From: an uncultured Clostridia bacterium
Lineage (GTDB): Bacteria > Bacillota > Clostridia > Oscillospirales > Acutalibacteraceae
Assembly: GCA_937877675.1 (NCBI GenBank)
Contig: CALEIS010000135.1
Coordinates: 173,557-237,556, forward strand
Reading direction: 5' to 3'
Length of the DNA stretch: 64,000 nt
Shown: piece after piece, positions 15,219-64,000 of the stretch
Layout of the letters: the number at the start of each line of letters is the position of its first letter
Position numbering within the stretch: the stretch's first letter is position 1
Program-made: the position numbers and the translations under genes
Notes under the pieces: generated by a model
What the model was told of the DNA's origin: nothing
Database searches by the model: none
The model's input: the letters and a program-made list of their open reading frames with translations, nothing else

Positions 15219-16724
15219 ATGAAAATTGTTAGTCCTACAAAAGCTACATAGATTTTACAACAACTCATTGATACAGGTAAAAGTGGAGAAGTGACTATTG
15301 GTCTTAAACCTGATTATAGAGTAGATGCAACAGGTCTTGCTTCTCTTATTTCACTTTTAGGGTTGACAGATAAAACAGACCTTGAAGGTGGTGGTTATCA
15401 TGTTGCTAATCCTTTGATTTATGTAAACATTAGAAAAGTTGATTGGGATGGTGAAGTTGTAAATTGGGATTTCCCTGATATGGGACAAGTCACAGCAACA
15501 GAAGATTTTCGTAATTAGTCAAGTTTAGCAATGACAGTGAATGTAGAAGCAGGTACTACTGTTAATTTGAGAACTAATTTCATAACACCTGATAATGAAA
15601 TCATTTACGTTTCTTGGGGTGATGACGATAGTATTTCAACGTATAATACAGGAACAGAAGAAAACGTAACAGAACTTACTCATGTTTATAATACAGCAGG
15701 AACTTATACAATTTTCGTAAAAGGAAAACTTGTAAAAACAACAGTACCAGGCCCTAGCAAAACAACAGATACTGTAACAACCGCTCTTCATTTTATCAAA
15801 CCTACGGTAATTGTAGATGGTTCTATGGGTATTTTAGGTGTATATGAAAAACTTACTGATGTTATTGGAACTATTATTTTAGAGGGTACAGGAACAGTGA
15901 TTAGTAATTTGTTTGTTCTCAATAAAAATATCACTAATGTAAAAGGACTCAAATTAGTATTCCCAGATACATGTATTGACGGTTTAAATATAACTTCAAT
16001 CAATGCAATGTTTGGTATGGGTTGTCAAGAAAATCCCGAACTAAAAGCCAATTTGATAGATGATGTACAACTTATCAATTATAATAGACATTCTATAACA
16101 AAAATTAATACGGCATTCTTTACTTCTGCTATTACAGAATTTCCTTATAGATGGTTTGGAAAAAATGTACAAACTGCTTCACAAGCTTTCAAAAATTGTG
16201 GAAATCTCCAATTTGTACCATCAGGGTTCTTTGAAAAAATAACTTAGGGATATGAAATGTTTTATTGTAATCCTGATGTTGCATCCCCTCTTACAATTTC
16301 ACATAATTTGAAATTCCCAAATTTGACAAATGGAGCAGGTATGTTTGGCAATAGAACATTGTCATTCAATGACATCAAAACGATTTTTGAATCTCTCCCT
16401 AAAAATCCCAATCCTTTGAAAGGTAGAACAGGTAATACTAGGGTCGATGACGTTTCTCCATCCAGTTATTCGATTACTTTTAGTTTTGACCCTGATGAGC
16501 CAAATATCAAACAGAAACTTGTGAAGTATTTCAATCTCAATACAAAGGCTATGGAAAATTGGCATAAAGACAATGATGTGTATTATGGGCAGGAAATAGA
16601 CATGAAAAAACTTTGGGATGGTGGTTGGTATCCTATGTATTTCACTCACTATGGTGATTCATGGGATTATAATAATTATAAAGGTTGGTTCGTGAATTTC
16701 AGAAATCCATATAATTTCACATAA
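15219..16724 (+). CDS. DUF285/BspA-repeat virion protein read through three TAG codons
   Basis: ATG at 15219. In-frame TAGs at 15249, 15516 and 16245. Track ORFs 15291.., 15531.. and 16257.. all share this frame. The repeat motif continues across the last TAG (..GFFEKIT*GYEMFYCNP..). TAA stop. It could alternatively be two genes split at 15531. Confidence 0.55.
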
Positions 16725-20614: not shown

Positions 20615-20804
20615 AAATGTGTTTTGTTTAAGTTGCTTAAGAATAACCCTCATGAGCGTAGTTCCCATGAGGGGGGTTAGGGTACTTCCCTAACGGATTA
20701 CTAATAACTCCGCAATTTCACTTACGAAGTAGTGAAACTCCGCATTCATTGTTACTGTTCATGACCAGTAGAATGTTGAAGCCCAAGTATAACCTAGTTT
20801 TGTC

Positions 20805-20878
20805 AGTTATGGTGAGAATTGAACTCACGACTTTCCTACGCATCACCGTATTCAGTTCTACCACTGAACTACATAACT
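20805..20878 (-). tRNA. tRNA-like gene with non-canonical anticodon arm
   Basis: Good acceptor (agttatg/cataact), D arm (gttc/gaac) and T arm (gtgag-ttcaatt-ctcac). The anticodon region folds only as tacg-gtgatg-cgta, a 6- or 8-nt loop. Confidence 0.35.
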
Positions 20879-21065: not shown

Positions 21066-21860
21066 TTATTCTATAAAAGTTTTAGCCTTCTTGATTGCTT
21101 CTTTTGGATTGTTATACACATCCTTCCAAATCAATCTCAATACTTCCCATCCATTTTCTTTAAGAAGAGCATCCTTACGCATGTCACGTTCTTTGTAATC
21201 TTGAAATCTTTGGTGTTGCTCACCATCAATCTCAATACATTTCTTCTTAGCAACCCATGCAAAGTCAAGCGAAAATCTTCCAAACGAATATTCTCTAATA
21301 TAGTCTTTGTCATCAAACTCATTCTCAATAACTGACATAAACCATTTTTCAGGGTAAGATGGTTCATTATTCCATCTACTCATGCCAATGTTATGTGCTC
21401 TGTTTTCAGAATGTGCTTTCTTCATTGACTCAGAGATTTTGTTTTTGGTATTATCTGTTAAAGTCTTACCATTACACCAAACTTCAATTTCTCCGTTAGC
21501 ATATCTTCGTTTTAGTTCTTCACTACCTTTACGAACACTTTCATCTGTCTCTTTAGTTAATCCTTTATTCCATGATGTTTTGCCACCATTTTTAGTAAAC
21601 TCAGGATGGATATTTGCTACATGTTCGTAAAGTTTTGCTCTACTGCCGAAGCATTCTCCACAATGAACACACTTCCATTTTGCTGCTCGTATGTTTGCTT
21701 CGTGAATACTGTTACGATTCACAATAGAGGGTAAATTACTCACACGATTCTTAACCTTATTGAGATTGGCTTTTGACCTACAAGACGCAGAACAAAATCT
21801 ACCAGACCCATAAGAGCCATCATGTTCTTTACCACATACTTCACATTGTTTCATGTTCAT
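21066..21860 (-). CDS. homing-endonuclease-like protein (Zn fingers + NUMOD3-like motifs + DUF559/Vsr-like nuclease)
   Basis: N-terminal CxxC...CxxxC and CxxC...H motifs. WNKGLTKET and WCNGKTLTD motifs. C-terminal FSLDFAW...IEIDGEQH...D...L...GWEVLR. Confidence 0.6.
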   Translation of the reverse strand: MNMKQCEVCGKEHDGSYGSGRFCSASCRSKANLNKVKNRVSNLPSIVNRNSIHEANIRAAKWKCVHCGECFGSRAKLYEHVANIHPEFTKNGGKTSWNKGLTKETDESVRKGSEELKRRYANGEIEVWCNGKTLTDNTKNKISESMKKAHSENRAHNIGMSRWNNEPSYPEKWFMSVIENEFDDKDYIREYSFGRFSLDFAWVAKKKCIEIDGEQHQRFQDYKERDMRKDALLKENGWEVLRLIWKDVYNNPKEAIKKAKTFIE

Positions 21861-21915
21861 ACTATTATTTAGTTGAATGGAAAATGCAGGGGACTAAAAC
21901 TTTTACTTTTTTAAG

Positions 21916-22521: not shown

Positions 22522-22719
22522 TCAAGCTAGAAGTTTCAAGAAAAATGCTAAACCGTAACAGATGTAGATTTTATAATGAAGTGATTTCATTGACTCTTCT
22601 ATTTCATCAGGGGAAACACCAAACTCTTCAATAAGTCTGTCAGTGCTTTTCCACGTTCTCCATAGAAGGAATGTGAGCAATAGACCTATACCGATTAGTA
22701 TGTATGCTATTGTTATCAT
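22522..22719 (-). CDS. small membrane protein
   Basis: 65 aa with an N-terminal TM helix. It overlaps the stop of the HNH gene. Confidence 0.45.
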   Translation of the reverse strand: MITIAYILIGIGLLLTFLLWRTWKSTDRLIEEFGVSPDEIEESMKSLHYKIYICYGLAFFLKLLA

Positions 22720-23477
22720 TTTATGTTATATTTTTCTTTCCACTTTCTAACTGCATTATCAGATACTTTGAAATGTCTGCCCAATGCCAACATAGATTTG
22801 TGAATTTTCATCGCTTCTCGTAATTCTTCCTCACTTGGTATGTTTCTTGCGTTCCAATTATCATAACATTTTCTACAACAAAATCTTTTCTGTTTAGTAG
22901 AAGATAACTGTTTGTTACATACTTCACAAAAACGTGGTTCTGCTTCAACTGTTACTTTTTTCTCCCTTGGTTTTCTCACAGGTTTTTCAATAGTTGGTGT
23001 AATCTTCTTTACAACTTTTGCTTTTTCCTTATGAGAAATTGTATTTGCACCTCTGTAATGTTCTGTTAATGCGTGACAATTAGGACAAACAATCTGTAAG
23101 TTCTCAAATGAGTTATCCAAACGATTGCCGTTCTTATGATGTAGTTCAAGTGGTATCTCTACACCTTGCCACTCTTTCAAGCCACATACTTCACATACTT
23201 TTTCTTTAAGATTGAATTGGAAAATTCGTCTTTTGAGATGATAACTTGATAACATTTTTTCACCTCTAAAAACTTTTTCCAAATCTTCCCTAGTAAAAGA
23301 TTGACTTGAAACTTTTTTACATCCCCTTCCCCCTTGATTTGGTTGAAAACACCCATACTTTTTAGCAAGGCGTGCAAATGCGTTATACGAAATTCCTAAC
23401 GAACCTGCTGCACCTGTTATAGTTTTTCTTTCTTCAAGTGCTTCTCGTATTATGTTTTCTTCTATATCGTATGCCAT
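22716..23477 (-). CDS. HNH homing endonuclease with N-terminal HTH
   Basis: ELHHKNGNRLDNSFENLQIVCPNCHALT, plus a second C-terminal CxxC/HTH region. Confidence 0.8.
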   Translation of the reverse strand: MAYDIEENIIREALEERKTITGAAGSLGISYNAFARLAKKYGCFQPNQGGRGCKKVSSQSFTREDLEKVFRGEKMLSSYHLKRRIFQFNLKEKVCEVCGLKEWQGVEIPLELHHKNGNRLDNSFENLQIVCPNCHALTEHYRGANTISHKEKAKVVKKITPTIEKPVRKPREKKVTVEAEPRFCEVCNKQLSSTKQKRFCCRKCYDNWNARNIPSEEELREAMKIHKSMLALGRHFKVSDNAVRKWKEKYNIK

Positions 23478-23543
23478 ACACTTATTTAGTGCTAAACATT
23501 CCGCAAGGGTTCAGATTTATGTAAATTATTGATTTTTATTGAG

Positions 23544-27549: not shown

Positions 27550-27754
27550 TGTTTTCTTCCTTTCTATACTCATGGCAAACCAAATTTCCATTGTCAAATG
27601 TCATGTGTGAAATTTCGTGGTCTTCTGACTCCTCCCGCAACCAATGATTATCCCAATATATTAACTCAAATTCAAAACTCATCTTTTCGAGTTCTTCCTC
27701 AGTCTTACTATTGAGAAAATTACGCAGTTCTACTAAGTTTTCAATCATTTCCAT
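27542..27754 (-). CDS. hypothetical acidic protein
   Basis: The start was chosen at MEMIENL. Confidence 0.4.
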   Translation of the reverse strand: MEMIENLVELRNFLNSKTEEELEKMSFEFELIYWDNHWLREESEDHEISHMTFDNGNLVCHEYRKEENNA

Positions 27755-27758
27755 AATC

Positions 27759-28016
27759 TTATCCAATGTAATAGTTAGCCAACTCACGAAGTTTGGTAGC
27801 AAGTCCTTGCTCAGAACTAACTACGAACTCTACTCCTACAGCCACATCATACACAATGTAACCTTCATCCCGCCGATAGGATACCATTACCTCACCCTTG
27901 TGGAAAGTAGAGGAAAGCATAGCCTCCAAGTCATCCGTCTGTTCATAGACATCAAAACCGTTACGATAAGCATCCCTATGTACAATACTGTCAAAGTTGA
28001 TTCGATTCATGTTCAT
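27759..28016 (-). CDS. hypothetical protein
   Basis: First ATG downstream of the promoter (MNMNRINFDS). Confidence 0.45.
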   Translation of the reverse strand: MNMNRINFDSIVHRDAYRNGFDVYEQTDDLEAMLSSTFHKGEVMVSYRRDEGYIVYDVAVGVEFVVSSEQGLATKLRELANYYIG

Positions 28017-28044
28017 GTTTGTGTTCCTTTCTTTGTCCACGGAC

Positions 28045-28073
28045 ATTATACACGAATTTATAATCCAAGTCAA
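28045..28073 (-). promoter_or_regulatory. TTGACT-N17-TATAAT promoter cassette
   Basis: attata at 28045-50 and agtcaa at 28068-73. Confidence 0.65.
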
Positions 28074-28176
28074 GACTTTTTTGATAAAAATTCAAATAAA
28101 AATCCCTCATAGACGAAGAATTATCTATGAGGGATACTGATAGACTGTCGCTGGCACAGGCATCTATTAGATGAAA

Positions 28177-28247
28177 TAGTCTCGCAAGGACTCGAACCTT
28201 GTCAGAGGGAATCAAAATCCCTAGTGCTACCATTACACCACGAGACT
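28177..28247 (-). tRNA. tRNA-Gln(UUG)
   Basis: Acceptor agtctcg/cgagact. D arm gtgt-aatggta-gcac. Anticodon arm aggga-ttttgat-tccct. Confidence 0.8.
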
Positions 28248-29807: not shown

Positions 29808-31340
29808 TTAGTCAACAAGCGTAATGTCAGCATAACGCTTACCATTAAGAACCTGTAACATGAAGTCAGCAGGAGTCTTACCTGAGAGAATTTGCTCAAA
29901 CATACCAGGCTTACAACCACCAACAAGAATTGCACCGTACTGATGCTGAGTTACAGGAAGATTACCGTAATCACGCTGAGCTGCATTCCAGAATACCAAC
30001 TTAGGTACTCGATACCCTGCACAAGAATACATAGTTCTGATACGGTCATATGCTGCTTCATTATTACCACCATATACACAAGCATCAAACTGCATATCAG
30101 AGATAATCACGATTGCTTCAGGCATCTCCTCAGCAGGAAGATTATGTCTCTTTGCTGCATTGAGTACCAACTCAAAGGTAGCAATTAGATTTGTAGAACC
30201 ACCCCAATCAGCAGAAGCAATGTGCTGTACCTTCTTCTTAAGTCCCCACTTGTCATCAAATTCAATGAGATGAGGATTAGACTCAAATGTAATGAACTTA
30301 TTCTTGAACACTCCCTTGTTATGCTCAGACACATACATACCAAGTGAGATTGCTACACCAATAGGCTTAGGATTATCACCCCAAGTCATTGAACCTGAAG
30401 TATCTACTACTGCAAGCCAATTCTTATGTGCTGCATCTCCAAAGTAATCAGGGAGAGAACGCCACATGTTGTCAAGCTGCTTTTCCTCAGTCTTACCTAC
30501 AGAATAGTCAAAGAACTTATTGACAATCTCATAAGGATAGAGAGTCTTGACATTCACCTTTGCCTCCTTGCAGTTTACATCTCCACGCTCAATAGCCTTG
30601 GAAACTGCATCAATGTGAGCACGATAACGCTCACCGTCCTTCTCATGGAAGCACTTACGATACTTCATGTTGGCGTTAGAAGGAACTTCGTTATAGTCAA
30701 AGGTGTAATCCTTGTTCGTAAGATAAGTCTCAAGAATGTTGATACGCTTACGAAGCATGGAAAGCGTCTTACGGTAATGCTTTTCTGTTACTCCCAACTC
30801 CTTGCACAACATCTTACCATAAAGGCGAGTGCGCTTAGAAGAAGCATTTACGGAAGGAAGCCACTTAGCCATAATTGAGATAGGCTTATCAGACTTATAG
30901 TTAGTAATGTCTGACTTCAACTGTTCAACTATGAACTGAATAATCTGCTTGTCAAGGTCATCATGAACTCCAAACAAACAGAACAAATCATCCCATCGAC
31001 CATAAGTGGGAATGTGAGAGATGATGTTAGAGTTAATAAATGTCTTAGGCTCAAGTGTGGCTACCTCATGGATACCCTTGCGGAATACCTCACGCTCACC
31101 CTGTCCACCGTTGCCACGAACATCACGAAGATAGAACAAACAACGAACTGTGGACAACTTGTCCTCTAACCATGCACTCCTTACCATAGTACGAATCCCA
31201 TTAGGATTCTTACGATAAGAAGCACCCTTAGCGAATAAATCGAGAACTGAATTCAACGTAGACTTCCAAGCAGCCATGCCGTTTGTAGTCTCAGTCAAAT
31301 TATCCGTCTCCTTGATTGCATCAAATAATGCGTTTCCCAT
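29808..31340 (-). CDS. Ro60-like protein: DUF2828-type helical domain + C-terminal vWA with MIDAS
   Basis: The N-terminus TETTNGMAAWKSTLNSVLDLF...LFYLRDVRGNGGQGERE matches my recollection of DUF2828. The C-terminus has VVDTSGSM (DxSxS MIDAS). This is the same two-domain layout as Ro60/Rsr. Confidence 0.6.
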   Translation of the reverse strand: MGNALFDAIKETDNLTETTNGMAAWKSTLNSVLDLFAKGASYRKNPNGIRTMVRSAWLEDKLSTVRCLFYLRDVRGNGGQGEREVFRKGIHEVATLEPKTFINSNIISHIPTYGRWDDLFCLFGVHDDLDKQIIQFIVEQLKSDITNYKSDKPISIMAKWLPSVNASSKRTRLYGKMLCKELGVTEKHYRKTLSMLRKRINILETYLTNKDYTFDYNEVPSNANMKYRKCFHEKDGERYRAHIDAVSKAIERGDVNCKEAKVNVKTLYPYEIVNKFFDYSVGKTEEKQLDNMWRSLPDYFGDAAHKNWLAVVDTSGSMTWGDNPKPIGVAISLGMYVSEHNKGVFKNKFITFESNPHLIEFDDKWGLKKKVQHIASADWGGSTNLIATFELVLNAAKRHNLPAEEMPEAIVIISDMQFDACVYGGNNEAAYDRIRTMYSCAGYRVPKLVFWNAAQRDYGNLPVTQHQYGAILVGGCKPGMFEQILSGKTPADFMLQVLNGKRYADITLVD

Positions 31341-31376
31341 AATTATTCTTTCTATGTTTATTATTGATAAAAATGG

Positions 31377-31993: not shown

Positions 31994-32065
31994 CAAGGCA
32001 TAGGGGAATTGAACCCCTGTTTAGGGAATGAAAATCCCTTGTCCTAACCACTAGACGAATGCCTC
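31994..32065 (-). tRNA. tRNA-Glu(UUC)
   Basis: gaggcat-tc-gtct-agtggtta-ggac. Anticodon arm aggga-ttttcat-tccct. 4-nt variable loop. Confidence 0.8.
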
Positions 32066-32141
32066 ATGTGTTTTTAACATCGCTGTCAATCTTCATTAGA
32101 GGGTTTTTATTTCCTCTTCACCTTTGGCAGGTGACAAGAAC

Positions 32142-32170
32142 ATTATACATCAGTTCTTTTCTTTTGTCAA
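32142..32170 (-). promoter_or_regulatory. TTGACA-N17-TATAAT promoter cassette
   Basis: attata at 32142-47 and tgtcaa at 32165-70. Confidence 0.7.
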
Positions 32171-32209
32171 GCACTTTTTGAAAGTTTTTTGAACTTTTTT
32201 CTTGAAAAA

Positions 32210-32281
32210 CACTCCATGCGGGATTTGAACCCACCTTCACGATTTTAGAGACCGTTGTCCTAACCACTAGACGAATGGAGC
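32210..32281 (-). tRNA. amber suppressor tRNA (anticodon CUA)
   Basis: gctccat-tc-gtct-agtggtta-ggac-a-acggt-CTCTAAA-atcgt-gaag-gtggg-ttcaaat-cccgc-atggagt-g. Canonical 7-nt loop with U33 and CUA at positions 34-36 (plus-strand tag at 32246-48). Confidence 0.8.
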
Positions 32282-32288
32282 ATGAAAG

Positions 32289-32362
32289 TAGCGGGGATAG
32301 GACTCGAACCTATGACTCCACGAATATGAATCGTGTGTTCTAACCAACTGAACTACCCAGCC
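32289..32362 (-). tRNA. tRNA-Met or Ile2 (CAU)
   Basis: Anticodon arm cacga-ttcatat-tcgtg. One U:C mismatch in the acceptor stem. Confidence 0.7.
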
Positions 32363-32509: not shown

Positions 32510-32581
32510 TCAGGGAGGCGAGACTCGAACTCGCAACCACTTGAACCCAAATCAAGCACTCTACCATTGAGCTACACCCTG
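32510..32581 (-). tRNA. tRNA-Pro(UGG)
   Basis: C1:G72. Anticodon arm cttga-tttgggt-tcaag. Confidence 0.75.
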
Positions 32582-33023: not shown

Positions 33024-33095
33024 TAGCCCCTGACAGACTCGAACTGCCGACCAATTCGGTGTAAACGAACCGCTCTACCACTGAGCTAAAGGGCC
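33024..33095 (-). tRNA. tRNA-Val(UAC)
   Basis: Anticodon arm gttcg-tttacac-cgaat. Confidence 0.8.
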
Positions 33096-33128: not shown

Positions 33129-33157
33129 ATTATATCATAGTTCTTTTTACTTGGCAA
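33129..33157 (-). promoter_or_regulatory. TTGCCA-N17-TATAAT promoter cassette
   Basis: attata at 33129-34 and tggcaa at 33152-57. Confidence 0.65.
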
Positions 33158-33422: not shown

Positions 33423-33899
33423 TTATAATTTATTGACATCAAGTAATCCATAATGAGCTTCTCTATGACAGTTTGCACATAAAAGAACACATTTGGATAC
33501 TTCATCATTTATAGTATCCATTGAAAGTTGACCAAGTTTTGCTATATTCAATTCAAAACTTTTTTCATCAGGGTTTTTATGATGAAATTCCAATGCTTGA
33601 GGACAACGGTTGTAACCACATGCCATACATTTACCGCCAAACTTGGTATCAATTATTTGTTGTTTGCGTTCTCTTGCACGATTACGATTACTTACAGTTA
33701 TTCGCTTATTTCTTTTTTTACGAAGAAATTCTTTTTCTTCCTCCGTATAATCTTTTACATTGAAAGGTCTATATTTAGTTTTCAATCCATATTTTCCTAA
33801 CCAATGACGAACCGAACTAAAACTTTTATCAAGTTCTTTACAGATGTCACGGATAGAAAGATTCTTGTCAATTAGTTTTTGTAATTCTTCTCGTTCCAT
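33423..33899 (-). CDS. HNH homing endonuclease with N-terminal HTH
   Basis: LEFHHKNPDEKSFELN...LLCANCHREAHYG. Confidence 0.8.
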   Translation of the reverse strand: MEREELQKLIDKNLSIRDICKELDKSFSSVRHWLGKYGLKTKYRPFNVKDYTEEEKEFLRKKRNKRITVSNRNRARERKQQIIDTKFGGKCMACGYNRCPQALEFHHKNPDEKSFELNIAKLGQLSMDTINDEVSKCVLLCANCHREAHYGLLDVNKL

Positions 33900-33952
33900 A
33901 TCTTTATTTAGTTCACTTTACAAATAAAGGAGAGATTTTATTACTGATTTAG

Positions 33953-35334: not shown

Positions 35335-35405
35335 AATCCATGAACGGAATCGAACCGTTACCTCCCCCAAGCACTAAGGGGGCTTGCCCATTACACCACA
35401 TGGAT
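35335..35405 (-). tRNA. tRNA-like gene with 9-nt anticodon loop
   Basis: Perfect acceptor atccatg/catggat. T arm aacgg-ttcgatt-ccgtt. The anticodon arm is ccccc-ttagtgctt-ggggg. Confidence 0.35.
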
Positions 35406-35679
35406 ACCTTCGACCTGAGGTTAATTACTCCTCCAGCCTATTTTCATGAAAAATTGTCGGAAGGATTGTTACCTGCAACCCTTCGCTTAGGTAGTGATTC
35501 TCACCCGCAGAGCGTCCCCTGCGAATTACCAGTCAGAGAGAACCGTTGCCTACCTGATAGTTCCTTATTTTCCTAGGTTGGAAAGGAACTAACAACCTAA
35601 CCAAAAGCGAATTATCGTAGTCGCTAAACACACGGCTCTTATTTTTTACTTCCTCAAGTCGTTGGAAATTTTGAGAACA

Positions 35680-35759
35680 AAATGTAGGAAGGACTTGAAC
35701 CTTCACGGGATTTCAACCCCACCCTTTAACGGCGCGTCTACCATTCCACCACTCACATT
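35680..35759 (-). tRNA. degenerate type II tRNA-Leu(UAA)-like gene
   Basis: T arm gaagg-ttcaagt-ccttc. D loop ggaatggtag. 4-bp anticodon stem with loop gttaaag. Imperfect acceptor. Confidence 0.35.
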
Positions 35760-36007
35760 CATTCTCTTATAAAATCAGATGAATAATTTTGTTATAGTTT
35801 ATAATTACACATCCGATTAGAATTGTTCAATTATTATAACGCTGATACATTCAGGAGTCGAACCTGACCATTGGATAGATTGCAGTCTATCGCCCTCCGA
35901 TACGTCCCTCCCAAAGTGGGTACTTTCTTATCGGCATTACCTCATTATGAAGGGGTTTGCGACCCAAGGTATCGGCTACATACATAATGAGTTTGTTATT
36001 GAACGAA

Positions 36008-37076: not shown

Positions 37077-37757
37077 TTATTTTCCAAATTTTTTCTATAA
37101 AATTGGCAACATCATCTTTCTTGCTCTAATTACATCACTCTCAGTAACGTCATCATGTAAGCCAAATCTTTCTCTTACCCACTCTTTATTCTCTTCAATC
37201 CACTGTTCTATAACATTCCAAACTTCTTTACCACTCAATGCAAACTGATTCTCTAAATCTGCTTCTAATTCCCATGCGAGTTCAAGACAGAATTCTTCAA
37301 GAGTTTTTCTATCGTCATAATGAGCACTTATAGCACCACTGAAATCATACTCATCACCACCATCTACTCTACCACTTGAATATGCTTCACCTAATGTAGC
37401 CTTATCTTTCGTTTGAGAAGCAGCAGCGATAACACCCTTAGCAAAATCTTCTTGGTCTTGTGGAGTAGTAGAACCACTCATTTGCTTCTGACGAATTTGG
37501 TCAGCACGGTTGAATAATGCTTGTCTAGTACCATCGTCAATGTCTTGTGGAGCATTGAAGTATACATAATTCATTACATCCTTATCTTCTAATCCATCTA
37601 CATCTTTCTCTTGAAGAGTTGGTGTAGCATTAGCAACAAGGTCTGTATCCTGAGCAATATCTTCCGTAGTTTCTTCCTGTGTATCTACATTACCAGGGAC
37701 AGTGGCAGGTTGCATAATTGCTTCCTCATTTATAAATCTTACTCTAAAGCGTTTCAT
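37077..37757 (-). CDS. acidic head-module protein (unknown role)
   Basis: 220-aa ORF ending at TAG (37095-97). TAA follows 5 codons later. It lies directly downstream of the capsid gene. Confidence 0.6.
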
Positions 37758-37833: not shown

Positions 37834-39981
37834 TTAGGCGTTATGATTCCAAACAGAACCTTCAGCAGGAGTTACTGTTACAGCAGTAGGAGCAGTAACC
37901 TGTACAGCAGGGCTGATTGGGAATGCATAGGAAGGAGCAGTACCAGTGGTTTCTGCATGAGCAGCATAACCGTTAGGATACATCTTATTGTCGTTCTGAA
38001 CACCAGGGTTGGAGAAGTCGTCAATAAGGATTACATGGTAGTAGAGGTGAGAACCGAAGATATTGTCCATTACACCGTAACGAGTCATAAGACCTACGTG
38101 TGGTGAGAAGGAGTTAGTATCGGTTGCAGTCTGAACCATGATAGGAATGTATGGGCAGTAAATGATACCTGCATCATACGTATCAGCACCCTTATAACCA
38201 AGCATACAATAGTTAGGAAGTTTAACTTCCTGCTCAGTTGTGTCGAACATATCGCCATAACCCATACCGTAGTCATCAGTGCTGTAAACGGCAGTTCTCT
38301 CATCAATGTAAACATTGAACTTGTTACCACCAAGAGTACCAGCAGCAGCGGTCTGAGCATTGTTAAGCTCGATGGTGTTGTTTACCTGCATAGGAACATA
38401 GTCCTCAAGCATCTGAAGAAGAGCAGCAACGTCAGGAGTACATACGATGAAGTTAGCAGCACCACGGTGGTTGCGAACACGCATTCTCATAGCCATCTTG
38501 ATAATGAACTGATAGAATGCACGAGCACGCTCACCCATCCAACGAGCGTCAGCGAGCTTACCAGACCATACAGACCATTCATTGTGCTTGAGAGCTGTGA
38601 AGAGCATACGAACAGTCATTTCACGGTCGATTTCAGCCTGAAGCTCATAGCTCATCTGCTGAGTAGCTTCGGTGTCGATGTCAATACCGTTGGTGTTCTT
38701 GAGGTCTTCCTGAGTTTCAAGTGTCCAAGAGGTTGAAAGTCTACGAGTACCAGCTTCAACAGCCTGCTTCTCGAAACCGAAGGAGGTACGAGCGATAGCA
38801 CCAGTAGCTTCAAAAGCATGAACGCGAGCAGCGATACCAGTATCCTCAAGACGGAACTGCCAACGACCACCTGCAAGAGGCTGGAGGAGTTGCTTGTCCT
38901 GAGCACCTGTGAAGCGGGTATCAAGACGCTGATAACCCATTTCAGAGTTACCCAAGTCCCACTTACCAGTTACTTCATTGAACTTGATGTCAGAAATCTG
39001 AACGTCACCCTTAGCAGGGTCAGAGATACCAACAATCTTAGTACCATCTGTAGCATCCTCTACACGCTTTTCAGCAGCAGTCTAAATTTTGTCAAGAAGT
39101 TCTGTCTCGGATGAATCAACACCACGCTGAGCAGCAACAACAACAGCTTCCTTAATCTTGGCTTCTGTGATGGTTGTAAGTGTAGCATAATCAACTTCAC
39201 CAATAATCTGTGTAAGAACAGGGTGAACGATGTACTTCTTATTCTTTTCAGAAGCAGCCTTTGTACTTACGAAAGCAGGGTTTGCAACGATTGCAGGGAA
39301 ACTCTGTGGGAAACCATTACCAACAACAGTTACAAGAGTAGCACTACCTTCGGCTGTTGAAGTAGCGTCAGTAATAGTAAGCTTAGCCTTGGTCTCTACA
39401 CCACGGATACCCTGAGCGGTATACTCAGTAGCAGCAGAACCATTGTATACAGTATCACGCTGAGCATATTCAGTTGTTTCACCAGAAACACGAGGACTGT
39501 GAACGTGCTCTGTGGAGCTGTCACCAAGAGCGTTAGCACCCTTGAGGTAACGATAACGGATAGCGAATGCAAGAGCTACAGGGCCAGGCATAGGCTGAAC
39601 ACCAACCGTTTCATTGCTCATAAGAGCAGGATAGATACGGCGAACCATAGGAAGAATAGTCGTTGGGTTACGCATGTCACCAGGAGCATAGAAGTCACTG
39701 TTGCCAAGCTCACCACCGTGAAGACCATTCTGAGGACCGAACATAGCGGTTGTCATTGCAGGACTGTTCTCATTGAGCCAACGCATCTGGTTCTCAAGAA
39801 GCATAGCGGTGTTGTTACGAACAGCCTTGGAGCGAATAGGAGCGAAACCAGCAGTACACTCAAGAAGCTCAGACCAGTTCTTTACTGCCTTGCGAGTACG
39901 CTGACCATTTTTCTGCGTCTGGGTAAGGCGAGCCTTAGGAGCAGCCTGTGCAGTACGCTTTGTTTTAGTAATAATAGCCAT
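37834..39981 (-). CDS. major capsid protein, T4 gp23-like, with one in-frame TAG
   Basis: Track ORFs 39082..39981 and 37834..38955 share a frame. They are joined through TAG 39082-84 with no other stop (..ELLDKI*TAAEKRVED..). The N-terminal part has gp23-type motifs LLENQ..WL, PMVRRIYPALMSNETVGVQPMPGPVALAFAIRY. Confidence 0.75.
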
Positions 39982-40024
39982 AATTGTATAAAAAGTATTT
40001 AGTTATTTGTATTTATTTTAGGGT

Positions 40025-42052: not shown

Positions 42053-42760
42053 ATGCAAAACAACAAACATATTATTATGATGGGTGACAATAAGTCACTA
42101 TCTGCAATTTCTGAGAATATTCTTCTTCAATATATTCCTCAAGAAGTTCTTAGAGAAAATATCATTGATACCAACTTTCCAAATTATGAACTGTATACTC
42201 TTCTTGTAGGGAAAACATACGGACATGTAATTGAGAAGAAGATTATCAATGAGCGTTTTAGTGATACACTTCCAAGTGATAATTCTATTACCGATTACGA
42301 TGCAACTTGTAACAATTTGCGTATTGAAATAAAGTCTTCACGTGTTCTTCGTAATAATTCTACAAAACGTGAAGAACTTGGTTTATCATTTTGGGAAGAT
42401 GCTGCATCAATCAATGATAAGAAATATGAATGGTCTTCTCCTTGGCAACAGGTAAAGCCAACATATTGCGATTATTTTATTTTTCACGCATTATACAAGG
42501 ACGGTTCACGGTATTTTGTAGTACCTTCGAGATGCATTGCAAGCAATATCTATGAAGAATCATCTGATGTCATACGTCTTGGAAAACAACATCCATCACC
42601 TGATGAGGGGGTTGTAAACAATAACACTATTGCTAAAAAGAATGCTCACATTTTTGAAATCACAGATGACATTCTAAATCTTCAAGATGCAATCAATTTA
42701 GTGTAGGAACGTTTAAAGACTAATAGTCTAGTTCTACCAAAACCTAGAAAGAAGAAATAA
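42053..42760 (+). CDS. putative PD-(D/E)xK restriction endonuclease
   Basis: D...EIK motif (ITDYDATCNNLRIEIKSS). Convergent with a gamma-class methyltransferase. The ORF ends at TAG 42704 and TAA follows 17 codons later. Confidence 0.4.
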
Positions 42761-57980: not shown

Positions 57981-58023
57981 GAAAAAGCTTGACAATTTTA
58001 GATTCATGAGATAGAATTGGGCT

Positions 58024-58485
58024 ATGAGAAATCATAGCCCTTTTTATTGTCTAATACCTGGCTCATTTCGTCCTCCTCATCAAGGACATTATGAGATGAT
58101 AAGTCATTACCAATCTCTTGCTAGTGAGGCAGGAGGTAAGGTGATTGTAATGGTGTCTAAACCATCTAAGAAGAATGAGAGATTGACAGGGAGTGGACAG
58201 GTAATTACTCCACAGTTTGCTAAGGAGAAGTTACATGAAATGTTTGGAGATAGTATTGAAGTAAGAATCTCTGAGCAAAGCCCTGTACGTGATTGTTATG
58301 AATTTGGTTCTGAGATTACGGAGGGAACTGTAATGTTTTGCTGTGCGAATAAGGATAAGGATATTGAGAGATTTGATATGATAAAGGATTACTATAAAAA
58401 GAAAAACCCCCACATTAAAGTGGAGGTTAGTCCTTTTGAGATTAAGACACAGATAAGTTCTAGTGAGATTAGAAGTAATATGTAA
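58024..58485 (+). CDS. cytidylyltransferase-superfamily (HxGH) nucleotidyltransferase
   Basis: GSFRPPHQGHYEMI near the N-terminus. 153 aa. Confidence 0.5.
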   Translation: MRNHSPFYCLIPGSFRPPHQGHYEMISHYQSLASEAGGKVIVMVSKPSKKNERLTGSGQVITPQFAKEKLHEMFGDSIEVRISEQSPVRDCYEFGSEITEGTVMFCCANKDKDIERFDMIKDYYKKKNPHIKVEVSPFEIKTQISSSEIRSNM

Positions 58486-61400
58486 TATTATCAGCAGTAT
58501 GTCGCCCTTCTGCACCCTACCATTCGATAAGGTCATATGATTTATTTTTATCAGTGAAAGTAAACCAATACATGATATAATCACCTGCACTAAAAGCCTA
58601 ATTCAACTACAATTGACCTGTACTCATAGGTATTGAACATTTCTTAGCATCCTGTGGTATGTATTTTACTACTTGTGTCTAATTACCTTTTTCATCCTAT
58701 TCAGTTACAATGGTCATTTTTACTAAAATGTAATTGATAGCCAAATTTGTCATATCTTTATAATGAATGTTACATTTTACACTGAAATATTTGTAAGGTG
58801 CTACATTCTTTACTTGGTATGAATAATCCATAGCTTGATTCGACTTCAATTTTACGTCTAATTGTGGAATGATTTGGTCACATGATGTATCATTTACATC
58901 CCAACCACATTTATATATTGAACTTGAAACATTATCAGTATTAGCCGAATGATAATCAATAGTCATCGTATATTTGCCAGGTTTTCTATATGGTATACTG
59001 ACACTAAAGTTTGAACGAATGTTGGATTGATATACTTCTTTACCTTGCTAATCATACAATTTACAAATTGCATCATTAGTATCTAAAATTTCAGATGGTG
59101 ATAAGATACCTTTCACGTCTATTCTCATATAGTCATAAGCACTCTAATAATTGGAGGAAACTTCTATATTTTTTTCTTTTAAGAAAGATTTAACATCTGT
59201 CAATTTTGTTGCAGTCCAAGTATCATCAAGGGTCTAAACACATGGCTAATAACGGAAGATTTTAGCATTTGTGTCAATGTCAGTATAACGACAACCTTTG
59301 AAAAGAATCTTTAGTTCATTATCATCTACTGAATAATAATTGGCATCCTTACCATAACTATAATATACATCATTAGTGTTATTTGGAGAAGTCCATTTAT
59401 ATGCTTTCTTTATATTATAAACACTTGTGTTTATCAATTCATAACCGTTTCTTTGAATATTATCTTTATCGAGATACACTTTAGACGATGAAATGTTTTC
59501 ATTTGTGGTGTCAATATTCAAAAAGTCTTCATATAAAGTAAGAGGTGTTCTAGTGATACAATATCTTCTAGGATATTGTTCTTTTCTTTTATATATTGAA
59601 TCTTTAGAATCGTATCCTACTGCACTAATATCAGAAGATTTCAAATCAATTATTCCATTCTAATCTGCTTCATATGCATAGTTTGTTTCTAATCCAAACT
59701 AACTAATAGGTAAATCAAATGAACCATCAATGTTTGGCGTAAATGATTTAGTTCCACATAAAATTTCCAAACCTCTTTCTGAGTTATCTTCGGAAAGATT
59801 TATTAGCCCTTTCATATATGGATAAAATCTATTACCTATCTTTTTCAAATATGATACAAAATTACTAATGGTAAGTCTAGGTACAGGATAATTGTATGTA
59901 TAATAATTGTTCTAAACTCCATCAATAACTTCTTTATACATTCTAATATCTTGTCTCTGACCAACATACTTATTCATTGGAATTATATGTCCAATCTCAA
60001 CCTTATAAATTCCATTAGGAATGCTTTCACAAGAAATTTTCTAACTAAAGTATCCATCGGTCGTTGGTTTATAATCATCAAAAGGTATCTTTTTATCGAC
60101 AATATAACTTATAACCTTTTCAGGATTTTTAGTAGACATTTGTGAAACACGATATAATACATCACCTCGCTCAGGTTCATTTGTTATCCTCCAAGAAGTT
60201 TCCATCTTTTTATTGTTTATTGAAACCATTGGCTAACTCACATTACCTACACTTGTGTATAATAATGTGACAGAAGGAATTTCTGCAATTTCAGAACCCT
60301 AATACACGTTGCTCTAATACATATCATCAGAACTTTTACATATTTCCTTTACTTCAACACTAAATGTATATTCTCCATTTGGTATTTCCCTAAATGGAAT
60401 TTTAGTCTAATAATATGTTTCTGAAATTTTATCTTCTTTGCCATTCTAATCAGTTATAATAACCTCTTCCGTTTTAGGATTTTCAAAGTTAAGGTCATAT
60501 GTTATCAATAATGGCTATAATTCTCTGAAATCATCAGCATGTTTTATATCAATACCACTGTTTGAATCATCATATTTGCTTGTTGTCAAATGCAATTTTG
60601 CATATTGCAAATGGTTAGGACAAGTGTCTTGTGGCAAGCAATATCTGAATATAATAACTTTGTCATCATTTTTACACTATGTTATTGGTGAAGATTGTGG
60701 CACTTCTAATTTATCAGGTTGAATACTTTCACTTGTCTTTTTATATACATACTGAGATACTCCTGATACACCATTGATACCTGTAACCTACATGTATATT
60801 TTGTAAATACCTGTCTCCAAGTTTTCCTTTATACCATTTACTACATTGTAAATCTTAAAACTTCTTTGATTCTAATTTCTCTAAATGTTTGAAACCTCAA
60901 CATCATCAGGACTACAAACTTTGTAACATTTTGGTATCCAATTACTTTCAATGTTTACATTTTTCTAATCAAATGAACAACTAAAACATGTATATTTTCT
61001 ATTAGGTTCATTCTCCTTTTCTTCAACCTATTCAACAATATCCACATTCAAAGCAATAATAGGTACATCTGACCAATTCCATATTATACTTTCTTCATTT
61101 ACAAACTCATCAGCATAATCCTAAGAAATATAATCGTCACTTATATAGACAATCTAATCCTATCCATAAATCTTTTTCCAATTCTTTACAGCGACTACAA
61201 TCAAACTATCATCTCTTTTATCATTGAGAACAAAACTACTTCTATTCTAATTTGAAACATTTGCACTCTTCAAATTGTACTAAATGCCTAAATCGTAAAA
61301 TGATTTATAAACGAGTTTATAAGGGATATATATTGTGACTCTATCATCGAAAGAACTATAAAAAGTGATTGCAATTTTTGGTAAAACTCTAACATCATCT

Positions 61401-61723
61401 GTCAAATAAACATTGAGTTTATCCACATTAAATGTATGTTTTACAATTTTCCAATTCTACTAATTGAAAATACCTAAAGAAGATGATGCTGAGTACAATT
61501 TTTTGATATACGTATCAGAAGTATTATCACCCCAATCAATTTTTACTTTGATAATTTCGACACCTTTAATCGAAGTATCGTTATTTTGAAAAACAACACC
61601 ATCAAAATCGAGAATGAACTCATCGTTATTGAAAATCTCAATAACACCTTTCATTATATTTTGTGTTTGACCATTTAGATAATCGGTCAATTGGTATTTT
61701 TTGACAATCTGTGCAGCACTCAT
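58469..61723 (-). CDS. large virion/fibre-like protein (1084 codons) with 32 in-frame TAG
   Basis: ATG at 61721-23. Every triplet was checked by hand: 32 cta (TAG) and no tta/tca until TAA 58469-71. The four track ORFs here all share this frame. Confidence 0.7.
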
Positions 61724-61736
61724 ATTTTTCTTTTAC

Positions 61737-62870
61737 TTATTTTACAACAAATCCCTTTGGTTTTTTATATCCAAAAATAGCATATGGTGTATACATACTA
61801 GAATCTGTATAATTGGAGTCCTACCAAAATCTTTGTAATTTACTCTTTGAACTTGATTCATTTGTTACTTTTGTTCTTATACTTGACGCATTCTATTCAG
61901 ACCAAGAATATGTTTTATTTTTATGGAAAGTAATCAAATACACAACGCCTTCCTCATACTAGTAATTATATAACTTAGGGAAGAACCATTCATATTTCTA
62001 ATTATTGCCATAATTACCTGTATTACGAGACACACATAACGGTGTTGAATTTTCAAGATAATAACTAATATCTGTTGGTATTACGTTACCTGCTGTTGTC
62101 TATCCCTCAATCACATTCTGACATTTTCTTATTACACAATATACATCACTAAAAGCCTAATTTGGGTCTTTCTTTATACTCAAATAATTTAACCCATCCA
62201 TTTTAGTATCTGTTGAGTTTGGTACATATGTAAACGCAGATATATTTTTATCTACTCCACTAAAAGTTGAACTAGCCATTGCATCATGTTCTTTCTAACA
62301 TTCCTAATTATATTCTATTGATAAAACATCTAACAACTAACGCAACTAGCATAATTCCTATTCAAAAAGAGAGTTACCACCTCCACCACCGATAATCGAA
62401 CTTATTTTTAGTAACTAAGATTCAACATAATCCTTAGATGCTATTGTATTTGTATTAACAGATATCTTTGGATTTTTATCTGAGTTAGATGTATCTACAA
62501 TTATACCTGTTCCTTGAACAATAGATTGAATACCATCACCTCCAGTATCATCATCACCCGAACCAGAAGCTTCATTAGTTATGGAAGTTGGTACATAAAT
62601 GTTATAATCAAGAGTTTGACCTTTCCATGTACCTGTCTAATGTTTTATTCTGGCAGTTCCTAAATGAATGTTTAGTGTATATGGGTCAATATATAACTGT
62701 GTTTTTATATTATTTGCTATACCTGGTGAGTTTATATATACATAGTTCAAATCATTTGAATTAGAAATCTAATTCTATACAGAATTTATAGAACCGTAAC
62801 TTTTACCTCCAAGATATAAGTCTGAAGGATAAACATCTGAACTTTTTATATTGACATCTTTTTCACTCAT
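61737..62870 (-). CDS. fibre-like protein (377 codons) with 15 in-frame TAG
   Basis: ATG at 62868-70, directly after the TAA of the upstream gene. 15 in-frame TAG, no TAA/TGA, TAA at 61737-39. No track ORF exists in this frame. Confidence 0.7.
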
Positions 62871-62872
62871 AA

Positions 62873-64000
62873 TTATACCTTGGTTATCTTAACAATAATA
62901 TCAGCAGAAAGCGAATGGAATACTTCTATTACGCATCTTTCATTTTCTACAACCGCAACTTCATATTTCACATCATCTTCACTTATTTCAGGATTCATTC
63001 TCTTACCATAACAAATTGACACATCACCATTATAATTTTCATCAAAATTGTTGATAACAATATATGTACTAGAGCCTATTTCAGGATTACTAAACCAGAA
63101 TGTATATTCAGGTGCTCCCTTTGGTACAAATTCAATGAAACCTTTCTGTTGTTCCATATCAATATCAAACTCAGTTTCTTCTGAAAGTGGAGTTGCATCT
63201 ATTGGTGTATTAGTATCAGTATCGTCATTTACAATATCAGGCTAGTAAACAGCATCTCCTGTTATAACTTCACCTTTAGCGTCATATGCTACTGAACACG
63301 ATGAATGAACAACAATATCTAATAATGAATCCTTGGTGTGTAAGAATTGAACGATACCTCTATAATTTGGTGGTACTATTAGTACAGGTTGGCAATAATT
63401 TCCATCTTCTGTGTACCATCCATAATACAATACGAAGTCTTGAGACGCTCTTGCAAATCTACGCCCCTAATTAGTAAACTACTTACCATTTTCATAAACA
63501 TATGGAAGACCTGTATTATCAACAACCACGTTAGTTATTGTGCCAGGTACAGGATTTTCAAAATAAATGTATTCTTCTGTATATCCACCACCTGAGTTGA
63601 TTTCAAGAAATCCTTGTTTATTTTTCAAATCAATAATTGTAGTTTCAGCGTTATTTACAGTATCAACAACTCGGTCTTTACCAACTATTAACTAACCTGA
63701 TTCATCAAAACATGCAGCTAATGCATAAGGTGCTATTTCATTTACAACAACTTCTTCAAATCCATCAGGAGGATTGACTGGAACATCAGGTGTTCCACCT
63801 CCACCCTGTCCCCACTAAGGGTCTTGTTTAATGGCAACAATAATGTCATCTCGAATGAGTTCATAGTTCATTCGTATGTTCATTGTTTTTTCAACACCAT
63901 TTTCGTCCTTATATTTCTTATATCCAACAAATACCATTTCGTCAGGTTTTGTGTTTCTTTCAAATTCAGAAAACTTTTTACGTGATATTGCTATTGGAAC
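62873..64000 (-). CDS. virion protein, 5' end outside window, with at least 5 in-frame TAG
   Basis: The frame is open from 64000 to TAA 62873-75, apart from TAGs at 63242, 63467, 63479, 63692 and 63815. Confidence 0.65.

Follow-up and report, generated by a model that had tools for sequence, protein, structure and literature searches.

The window, which is the whole 64,000-nucleotide stretch of DNA analysed here, carries about 30 tRNA genes (29 according to ARAGORN and 28 according to Rfam), which all lie on the minus strand in the interval from 20.8 to 36.1 kb. One of them has a CUA anticodon and occupies the last place of a putative Val-Pro-Met-Sup unit. This gene, its neighbours and the tRNA-Gln gene used for comparison are the following:

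32210..32281, minus strand: amber suppressor tRNA(CUA) with a tRNA-Glu-type body (Rfam, ARAGORN, stem pairs, ortholog, covariation)
32289..32362, minus strand: tRNA-Met(CAU), directly 5' of the suppressor, with a 5-nt gap (ARAGORN, Rfam)
32510..32581, minus strand: tRNA-Pro(UGG), member of the putative Val-Pro-Met-Sup unit (ARAGORN, Rfam)
33024..33095, minus strand: tRNA-Val(UAC), first gene of the putative Val-Pro-Met-Sup unit (ARAGORN, Rfam)
33129..33157, minus strand: promoter-like site of sigma-70-like type (11/12), with an extended -10, upstream of tRNA-Val
32142..32170, minus strand: sigma-70-type promoter (12/12), TTGACA-17-TATAAT, between the suppressor and tRNA-Glu
31994..32065, minus strand: tRNA-Glu(UUC), the standard Glu tRNA of the phage (ARAGORN, Rfam)
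28177..28247, minus strand: tRNA-Gln(UUG), comparator with A1:U72, A73, a 7-nt D loop, G46 and a different D stem

The suppressor tRNA gene and its relatives

The suppressor is encoded on the minus strand, which the first-pass annotation of this DNA had left unstated. That annotation described a canonical 72-nt cloverleaf with anticodon loop CUCUAAA, and the description is borne out. An explicit segmentation pairs 21 of 21 stem positions, and the covariance model Rfam RF00005, which has a gathering score of 29, matches the gene with 55.6 bits (E=2.9e-9) over model positions 1-71 of 71. ARAGORN, which the annotation had proposed as a check, places a CUA tRNA at 32209-32282 and labels it 'Pyl', a label that comes from the anticodon alone. 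The anticodon loop has U33 and a purine at position 37 and is the same in orthologs. The D loop is formed by 8 nt, AGUGGUUA, on a stem GUCU/GGAC, and the 4 nt GAAG, with A46 and no nucleotide 47, make up the variable region. The tRNA also has a G1.U72 wobble, G73, U11:A24 and U13.G22. Over seven related CUA tRNAs, 98.6% of the cells pair, 11 of the 21 pairs show a compensatory change, and none of 500 shuffles reaches the observed covariation values. The suppressor tRNA locus is thus confirmed as real.

Pyrrolysine tRNAs have a short D loop, a 3-nt variable region and an elongated anticodon stem, and are accompanied by pyl genes. A tRNA-Pyl identity is rejected here on the canonical cloverleaf, the 8-nt D loop, the GG motif, the TTC T loop and the 5-bp anticodon stem; no pyl genes are found among the ORFs that were scanned.

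The gene order Val-Pro-Met-Sup given in the first-pass annotation stands, and the operon that it proposed is consistent with the promoter sites rather than proven by them. The 11/12 site upstream of tRNA-Val is a candidate promoter of this unit. The 12/12 site downstream of the suppressor is kept in the alignment of relatives and likely marks the start of a new transcription unit, ahead of the tRNA-Glu(UUC) gene that lies 145 nt downstream of the suppressor.

The recoded relative L028 has an ortholog of the suppressor at the corresponding place of a Val-Pro-Met-Sup-Glu-Tyr series, on a contig that also carries the recoded locus L012. The two copies differ by three fully compensatory pairs (2:71, 6:67 and 28:42) and by two wobble-to-Watson-Crick changes, and have in common the D arm, the loop, the variable region, G1.U72 and G73. 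The suppressor behaves as a presence/absence cassette of about 80 nt located directly after tRNA-Met(CAU), and the close relatives L015 and L017 have no suppressor at this locus, where a clean indel of about 80 nt is seen. Further Glu-type CUA tRNAs were found by a metagenome scan in L029, L030, L036, L035 and L032; those of L029 and L030 come after tRNA-Met, that of L032 is identical to the window copy, and L036 has two copies with the acceptor GUCCCCA, which resembles the canonical stem of bacterial tRNA-Glu. A strict pattern of the D arm and loop of the suppressor gives zero matches in IMG/VR and zero in 185,579 species genomes, and a looser tRNA pattern gives four matches of mixed quality in IMG/VR. 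The capsid region of a 363-kb relative (L027) contains no tRNAs. A homolog of a gene inside the tRNA array (L018) lies on an Akkermansia chromosome and not in a phage, and was set aside.

In-frame TAG codons and the residue they encode

Genes with in-frame TAG codons in the window include the following:

58469..61723, minus strand: 1084-aa gene of the structural block, with 32 in-frame TAG and no internal TAA or TGA (14 full-length homologs, alignments)
61737..62870, minus strand: 377-aa gene with 15 in-frame TAG (ORF mapping, alignments)
62873..64000, minus strand: C-terminal 375 codons of a gene extending past the end of the window; 5 in-frame TAG (ORF mapping, alignments)
37834..40002, minus strand: T4 gp23-type major capsid protein, with one in-frame TAG at 39082-39084

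The first three are consecutive minus-strand ORFs (58469-64000) that together contain 52 in-frame TAGs and no TAA or TGA, and from its reading frame the 1084-aa protein could not be made without TAG decoding. The three TAG-dense proteins have no PHROGs or Pfam matches. In the rest of the window, reading TAG as sense changes little, and a few genes have one to three TAGs. The TAG of the capsid gene is uninformative as evidence, being located in a hypervariable insertion. Global ORF statistics under alternative stop sets are indecisive, and the mapping of TAG in each ORF is needed. The composition of TAG-rich and TAG-free genes of the window is ambiguous for the assignment of the residue, since the recoded block has a higher AT content and NNG codons as a whole are less frequent in it.

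The major capsid protein is T4 gp23-like and has about 30% identity to anything deposited. Close relatives occur by the thousands in ENA and Logan assemblies, many of them on contigs of about 250 kb and of 355-371 kb, which indicates a jumbo-phage clade. The window phage is a distant T4-like jumbo phage with a genome of likely about 250 kb, of which 64 kb are analysed here. The ORFs of the window include an anaerobic ribonucleotide reductase and BspA-type repeats, which suggests an anaerobic, gut-type setting.

All five relatives used for comparison (L010-L014) are recoded in the same manner. The same structural block is TAG-dense in them, while the conserved early enzymes that were checked (Dam, EcoRI-like methylase, ligase, NrdD and radical SAM) are essentially TAG-free, a distribution that agrees with the published model of early/late recoding and by which the suppressor would gate the virion proteins. 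In the late block, TAG makes up 2.8% of codons in the window phage and up to 7.4% in the relatives, which corresponds to 34-67% of all Glu-type codons.

The proteins deposited in databases already carry Q in place of TAG. The database protein P0001 is the window protein itself, with Q at all but one TAG, and the homolog loci fail to give the query protein under the standard code. Residues taken from such entries would be circular, since TAG was translated as Q beforehand, and for this reason the DNA of the homologs was used. Three syntenic gene families from the window and the five recoded relatives were aligned with TAG masked as X, which gives 381 TAG codons; the pairs described below come from 5-6 related genomes and are phylogenetically non-independent.

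Among the standard-codon residues opposite TAG, E accounts for 19.4% (4.0x enriched), D for 12% and Q for 4.4%. The enrichment of TAG-E pairs is 3.27x (2.73-3.76), compared with 3.59x for E-E and 3.99x for TAG-TAG. TAG also exchanges with D and K as Glu does and as Gln does not, and its exchange row has a correlation of 0.92-0.95 with that of E and of 0.53 with that of Q. In 17 columns with a TAG, at least three other sequences agree on a single residue, which is E in 12 of these columns and Q in one. The codon found most often opposite TAG is GAA (157 cases, against 25 for GAG), which is two mutations away from TAG, so a mutational-neighbour artefact is excluded. In the bootstraps, the fit is best for Glu in 299 of 300 replicates overall, and in 300, 282 and 270 of 300 for the individual families. 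The confidently aligned columns show the same pattern, with TAG-E at 6.1x and E-E at 7-10x, and TAG-Q at 3-4x and Q-Q at 18-39x. The TAG-Glu signal is present in each genome separately, and in the window the values are 3.13x for E and 1.12x for Q. TAG and Glu codons are statistically equivalent.

Individual sites agree with this pattern. The NrdD of two relatives contains two isolated TAGs opposite an invariant E, in near-identical context, and the sole TAG polymorphism relative to a strain of about 97% identity is an exchange between TAG and Glu. Across orthologs, E+TAG ranges from 7.6 to 11.0% of codons and Q+TAG from 1.9 to 9.2%, and Q alone from 1.2 to 2.1%. The solved structures of NrdD are too distant to add weight at these positions.

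Two controls describe the behaviour of the method. When standard codons are masked in place of TAG, their own amino acid is the top partner, including Q for CAA/CAG (9.2x) and E for GAA/GAG; this control is inapplicable to TGG, the only Trp codon. The identical pipeline was also applied to the megaphages Lak-A1, Lak-B1 and Lak-C1, for which Gln is the accepted assignment of TAG, and returns Q at 3.97x and E at 0.62x. The method therefore separates Glu from Gln on real recoded genomes.

The conventional interpretation would be code 15, in which TAG means Gln and the suppressor is charged with Gln by GlnRS, or by a non-discriminating GluRS followed by GatCAB. Precedent speaks for it, as every published phage TAG reassignment is to Gln (Borges preprint; PMC9523058), and the TAG-Q exchange, at 2.08x, does lie above 1. 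This value is nevertheless the ordinary E-Q rate (2.01x) and is 3.4-fold lower than Q-Q (7.12x; 4.1-10.2), and masked Gln codons find their own residue far more strongly. The bootstraps, the unanimous columns and the invariant E opposite the NrdD TAGs all speak against Gln, under which the Q+TAG content would vary 5-fold among orthologs, and so does the return of Q for the Lak phages. Code 15 is therefore unlikely for these genes.

Identity of the suppressor tRNA

The first-pass annotation regarded the inserted residue as undecidable from the tRNA by itself, a reading that is upheld here, and it compared the D arm, the G1:U72 pair and the 4-nt variable loop with those of tRNA-Glu(UUC). The comparison proves correct, with positions 5-27 identical between the two tRNAs and G1.U72 and G73 common to both. 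The annotation also assigned to tRNA-Gln(UUG) a different D arm and a 5-nt variable loop; the different D stem is right, and the variable loop is not, as this tRNA forms 21 of 21 pairs and its variable region is 4 nt long. It likewise has U11:A24 and U13.G22, so that these two pairs and the 4-nt variable region do not discriminate between Gln and Glu in this phage. The positions at which the phage tRNA-Glu and tRNA-Gln do differ are 1:72, 73, 9, 12:23, 15, 26 and 45/46, and both copies of the suppressor, in the window and in L028, have the Glu state at every one of them.

With the anticodon masked, the suppressor is 71% identical to the tRNA-Glu(UUC) of the window and to a tRNA-Glu(CUC) of a 635-kb phage, whose acceptor stem is one compensatory pair away from that of the suppressor, and it is at most 50% identical to any phage tRNA-Gln, in agreement with the Glu-like body described at first. 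In 50,697 deposited phages, the sequence that matches it best over the full length is a tRNA-Glu(CUC). The likeliest ancestor, judging from these alignments, would be a CUC isoacceptor of tRNA-Glu converted by a single C36-to-A change. The D arm by itself was rejected as proof of Glu identity, since tRNA-Gln(CUG) genes of eukaryotic type, together with CUA derivatives of them, have an identical D arm on three metagenome contigs, which are probably from ciliates.

The resemblance of the anticodon stem to that of tRNA-Trp, noted in the first-pass annotation, is real (ACGGU/ACCGU in tRNA-Trp and ACGGU/AUCGU in the suppressor). A reading of TAG as Trp, which this stem could suggest, was rejected, as the TAG-W exchange is 0.2x and the likeness of the stem is lost in L028.

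[quoted passage not shown] The suppressor holds all determinants of this "augmented D helix" in the window and L028 copies. In the anticodon loop it has U35 and A37, while position 34 is C and position 36 is A, and two strong anticodon determinants of the E. coli GluRS are thereby lost. C34 also occurs naturally in tRNA-Glu(CUC), and A36 is unavoidable for the reading of UAG. In the acceptor stem, G1.U72 is as in the phage tRNA-Glu, and the second pair (2:71) is C:G in the window copy and U:A in the L028 copy.

GlnRS recognizes U1-A72, G2-C71, G3-C70, G73, G10, U35, G36, A37 and U38 (PMC9976931). The suppressor is without five of these nine determinants (1:72 is G.U, 2:71 is C:G or U:A, 3:70 is U:A, and positions 36 and 38 are A) and keeps only G73, G10, U35 and A37. 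GatCAB acts on tRNAs with a first pair of the U1-A72 type, and the supernumerary D-loop nucleotide U20a is an antideterminant (PMC9976931); the suppressor has G1.U72 as first pair and a D loop of 8 nt. Since the D loop of the L028 tRNA-Gln is likewise 8 nt long, the first pair is a safer guide to GatCAB substrates than the D loop. The first-pass annotation had held Glu-like features to be compatible with Gln if the host uses a non-discriminating GluRS and an amidotransferase. This fallback is disfavoured by the first pair, by the D-loop nucleotide and by the comparison of the 381 TAGs.

The tRNA itself also offers arguments for code 15. E. coli GlnRS readily mischarges CUA suppressors with a weak 1:72 pair, and E. 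coli amber suppressors in which this pair is weakened insert Gln through this enzyme (PMC9976931); as the suppressor has G1.U72, G73, G10 and U35, a host whose GlnRS is like that of E. coli could conceivably charge part of it with Gln. The features that it shares with tRNA-Gln (U11:A24, U13.G22 and the variable region of 4 nt) imply that GluRS may handle tRNA-Gln in the host. Against these arguments stand the missing GlnRS determinants (U1-A72, G2-C71, G3-C70, G36 and U38) and the missing A/U first pair required by the amidotransferase.

A second alternative is ambiguous decoding, by a mixture of Glu and Gln or by two decoders, with TAG placed by selection mainly at surface-exposed sites that tolerate Glu. 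A tRNA-Glu-derived amber suppressor of E. coli was reportedly mischarged in part with Gln (Normanly et al. 1990), which fits such a mixture. TAG-E is also somewhat lower than E-E, TAG is concentrated in fast-evolving structural proteins, and in gene family B the TAG-Q value (2.77) is close to that of TAG-E (2.55), although the full-profile fit of this family is still Glu. There is, on the other hand, no excess of Gln over the normal E-Q rate, either overall or in confidently aligned columns, and TAG occupies invariant-Glu positions of the conserved NrdD, which makes ambiguous decoding quite unlikely. It is very improbable that the tRNA(CUA) is a decaying duplicate or a recent cassette and that TAG is read by another phage or host factor: the cassette is cleanly missing from L015 and L017, the surroundings of the capsid gene in the 363-kb relative are free of tRNAs, and the window covers about a quarter of a genome whose other parts could encode a further decoder, synthetase or release factor, but the cloverleaf is perfect, the compensatory changes between orthologs point to purifying selection on its structure, the suppressor is present in both recoded genomes whose array is seen (the window and L028) and identically in L032, a near-consensus promoter lies ahead of it, and this type of suppressor is in no representative bacterial genome.

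Proposed decoding and comparison with known systems

The locus probably encodes a functional amber suppressor that derives from tRNA-Glu, and TAG would be read as Glu in the late structural genes. That TAG means Glu throughout a clade of T4-like jumbo phages of about 250-370 kb from gut-type metagenomes, a code undescribed for virus or prokaryote, is probable. Who charges the suppressor and when it is expressed we infer as follows. The suppressor would be co-transcribed with tRNA-Val, tRNA-Pro and tRNA-Met from a sigma-70-type promoter, and GluRS would charge it with Glu by means of the intact augmented D helix, U35 and A37. Conversion to Gln-tRNA would be prevented by a first pair that is not A/U and by the extra nucleotide of the D loop. 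The charged suppressor would then read UAG as Glu in the late structural block and gate the production of virion proteins, presumably with the timing of the early/late recoding model and with Glu replacing Gln.

TAG→Gln and TGA→Trp are described by Borges et al. as the only reassignments in phages with a code unlike that of the host, a restriction that they explain by the inherent readiness of GlnRS and TrpRS to take suppressor tRNAs as substrates. The isotypes of 180 phage amber suppressors are Gln, Trp, Ile and Tyr, with no Glu (PMC10879173), a jumbo-phage survey of 2026 simply applied code 15, and a full-text literature search found no report of phage stop-codon reassignment to glutamate. 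If true, TAG→Glu breaks the Gln/Trp-only rule and indicates that GluRS can also be recruited, so that the takeover of stop codons by phages reaches beyond the "easy" mischarging routes of GlnRS and TrpRS. It would be a new natural genetic code and the only prokaryote-associated one with a stop codon read as an acidic residue, and TAG would be a major Glu codon of the late genes, sometimes the majority one.

Databases and gene callers that hard-code TAG as Q would in this case mistranslate the clade systematically, and the annotation with code 15 would prove to be indiscriminate; a collection of 5.8 billion proteins renders TAG as Q in the homologous proteins. An uncharged residue would then stand for an acidic one at 3-7% of the positions of virion proteins, which affects structure prediction, charge and epitope models. 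The suppressor, compact and dependent on GluRS, would also offer a natural amber scaffold of possible interest for the engineering of genetic codes. The masses of Glu and Gln are 0.984 Da apart (129.043 and 128.059 Da), so the claim is directly testable by mass spectrometry.

The code 15 gut phages (crAss-like, Lak, Garnet, Topaz and other clades; Borges, Peters) likewise have a tRNA(CUA) in the standard-code part of the genome, TAGs in late structural genes, TAG-free early enzymes and presumably a standard-code host. The window phage resembles them in that its late genes contain in-frame TAG and that it encodes a suppressor tRNA. It differs in that its TAG aligns with Glu in homologs, where code 15 expects alignment with glutamine, in the residue, which would be Glu, and in the tRNA-Glu-type body of the suppressor.

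The nearest known precedent is the nuclear code of peritrich ciliates. In this code (NCBI table 30) both TAA and TAG mean Glu. The two systems are alike in turning a stop codon into Glu through a tRNA-Glu-derived suppressor. The peritrich code is eukaryotic, nuclear and genome-wide and includes TAA and TAG, whereas here a virus of a prokaryote would use TAG only, in part of its genome, and TAA and TGA are still stops.

The augmented D helix of bacterial tRNA-Glu was described by Sekine et al. in 1996, according to a later summary (PMC9976931). Like bacterial tRNA-Glu, the suppressor has U11:A24, U13.G22:A46, no nucleotide 47, U35 and A37, to which the L028 copy adds U2:A71; it differs in its anticodon, CUA and not YUC, and in G1.U72 in place of G1-C72. 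Laboratory amber suppressors made from the tRNA-Glu or tRNA-Trp of E. coli (supE/su7-type and synthetic CUA) arise by one anticodon change, as would be the case here, and in the window copy the anticodon stem-loop differs by two bases from that of the phage tRNA-Trp. These laboratory suppressors tend toward capture by GlnRS, whereas the evolution of the recoded genes of the window phage and its relatives indicates Glu.

The TAG-dense late block and its database translation

The block of three minus-strand structural ORFs that is dense in TAG differs from the rest of the window in composition. GC content at 58000-64000 is 29-32%, against about 35-46% in the remaining window, and codon usage is also distinct, with CAG, GAG and AAG strongly depleted and TCG enriched. 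In composition, the late genes resemble a compartment of their own. In the 363-kb relative (locus L010), the structural block holds 140 TAG against 69 GAA plus GAG codons, and a single 154-codon ORF (L010 13970-14431, minus strand) carries 17 in-frame TAGs, which make up 11% of its codons.

In the public protein collection, the in-frame TAGs of this clade are shown as Q in the homologs of the 1084-aa TAG-rich protein (P0001-P0014). If TAG encodes Glu, these entries are wrongly translated at 3-7% of their positions.

TAG outside the dense block

The gp23-type capsid protein (37834-40002, minus strand) has an approximately 300-residue hypervariable insertion, which holds the only TAG of the gene and is strongly divergent even between relatives whose core is 80-99% identical. 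Three ORFs of the standard-code region end in a TAG located 6-18 codons ahead of the next TAA or TGA:

37095-37757, minus strand, ORF ending in TAG
42053-42706, plus strand, ORF ending in TAG
27711-28112, plus strand, ORF ending in TAG

Early in infection, TAG may still act as a terminator for some genes, and short C-terminal extensions may be produced once the suppressor is active.

The suppressor cassette and the tRNA array

The suppressor directly follows tRNA-Met as a presence/absence unit of about 80 nt, which is cleanly missing in two close relatives (compared regions L015 6801-6937 and L017 9165-9316) and present in the window (compared region 32066-32288) and in the recoded relative L028 (compared region 16198-16425). 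The flanks of L028 and L017 are near-identical, and only L028 has the suppressor. Endonuclease-like (DUF559, HNH) and HTH ORFs are scattered between the tRNA genes of the array:

21066-21902, minus strand
22716-23510, minus strand
33423-33917, minus strand

These interspersed ORFs, together with tRNA-Glu bodies that are unlike between the window and its close relative L015, suggest cassette turnover as a mode of evolution of the array. The array also contains a gene for a 522-aa DUF2828/DUF7788/VWA protein (29808-31376, minus strand), which keeps the same placement throughout the clade and has thousands of homologs. A copy with 56% identity adjoins a Cas12b CRISPR locus in an Akkermansia MAG (L018 10001-11542).

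Some tRNA calls are discordant or unusual. The tRNA at 20804-20878 (minus strand) scores 47.9 bits with Rfam, is missed by ARAGORN and has an anticodon arm that folds non-canonically, while a second tRNA-His and a tRNA-Leu(UAA), at 35335-35405 and 35679-35760 (both minus strand), are called by ARAGORN and absent from the Rfam output. Some tRNAs of relatives (L015 3518-3592; L016 3173-3247 and 3676-3751) have A34 anticodons, namely Cys-ACA and Tyr-AUA, a type that is uncommon among phage and bacterial tRNAs.

CUA tRNAs on metagenome contigs

One metagenome contig (L035) encodes tRNA-Glu, a Glu-type tRNA(CUA) and an ochre-reading tRNA with a UUA anticodon called by ARAGORN (1090-1162 and 2842-2914 for the latter two), and two stop codons may be reassigned there. 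Three others (L033 3225-3297; L034 2905-2976; L037 407-2625) carry eukaryote-type tRNA-Gln(CUG) genes with acceptor GGUUCCA and U73, as well as single-base CUA derivatives of them whose D arm is that of the phage suppressor. The derivatives are likely to be tRNA-Gln(CUA) genes of ciliate nuclei, and a eukaryote-type tRNA-Gln that shares the suppressor D arm cautions against calling the isotype from the D arm alone.
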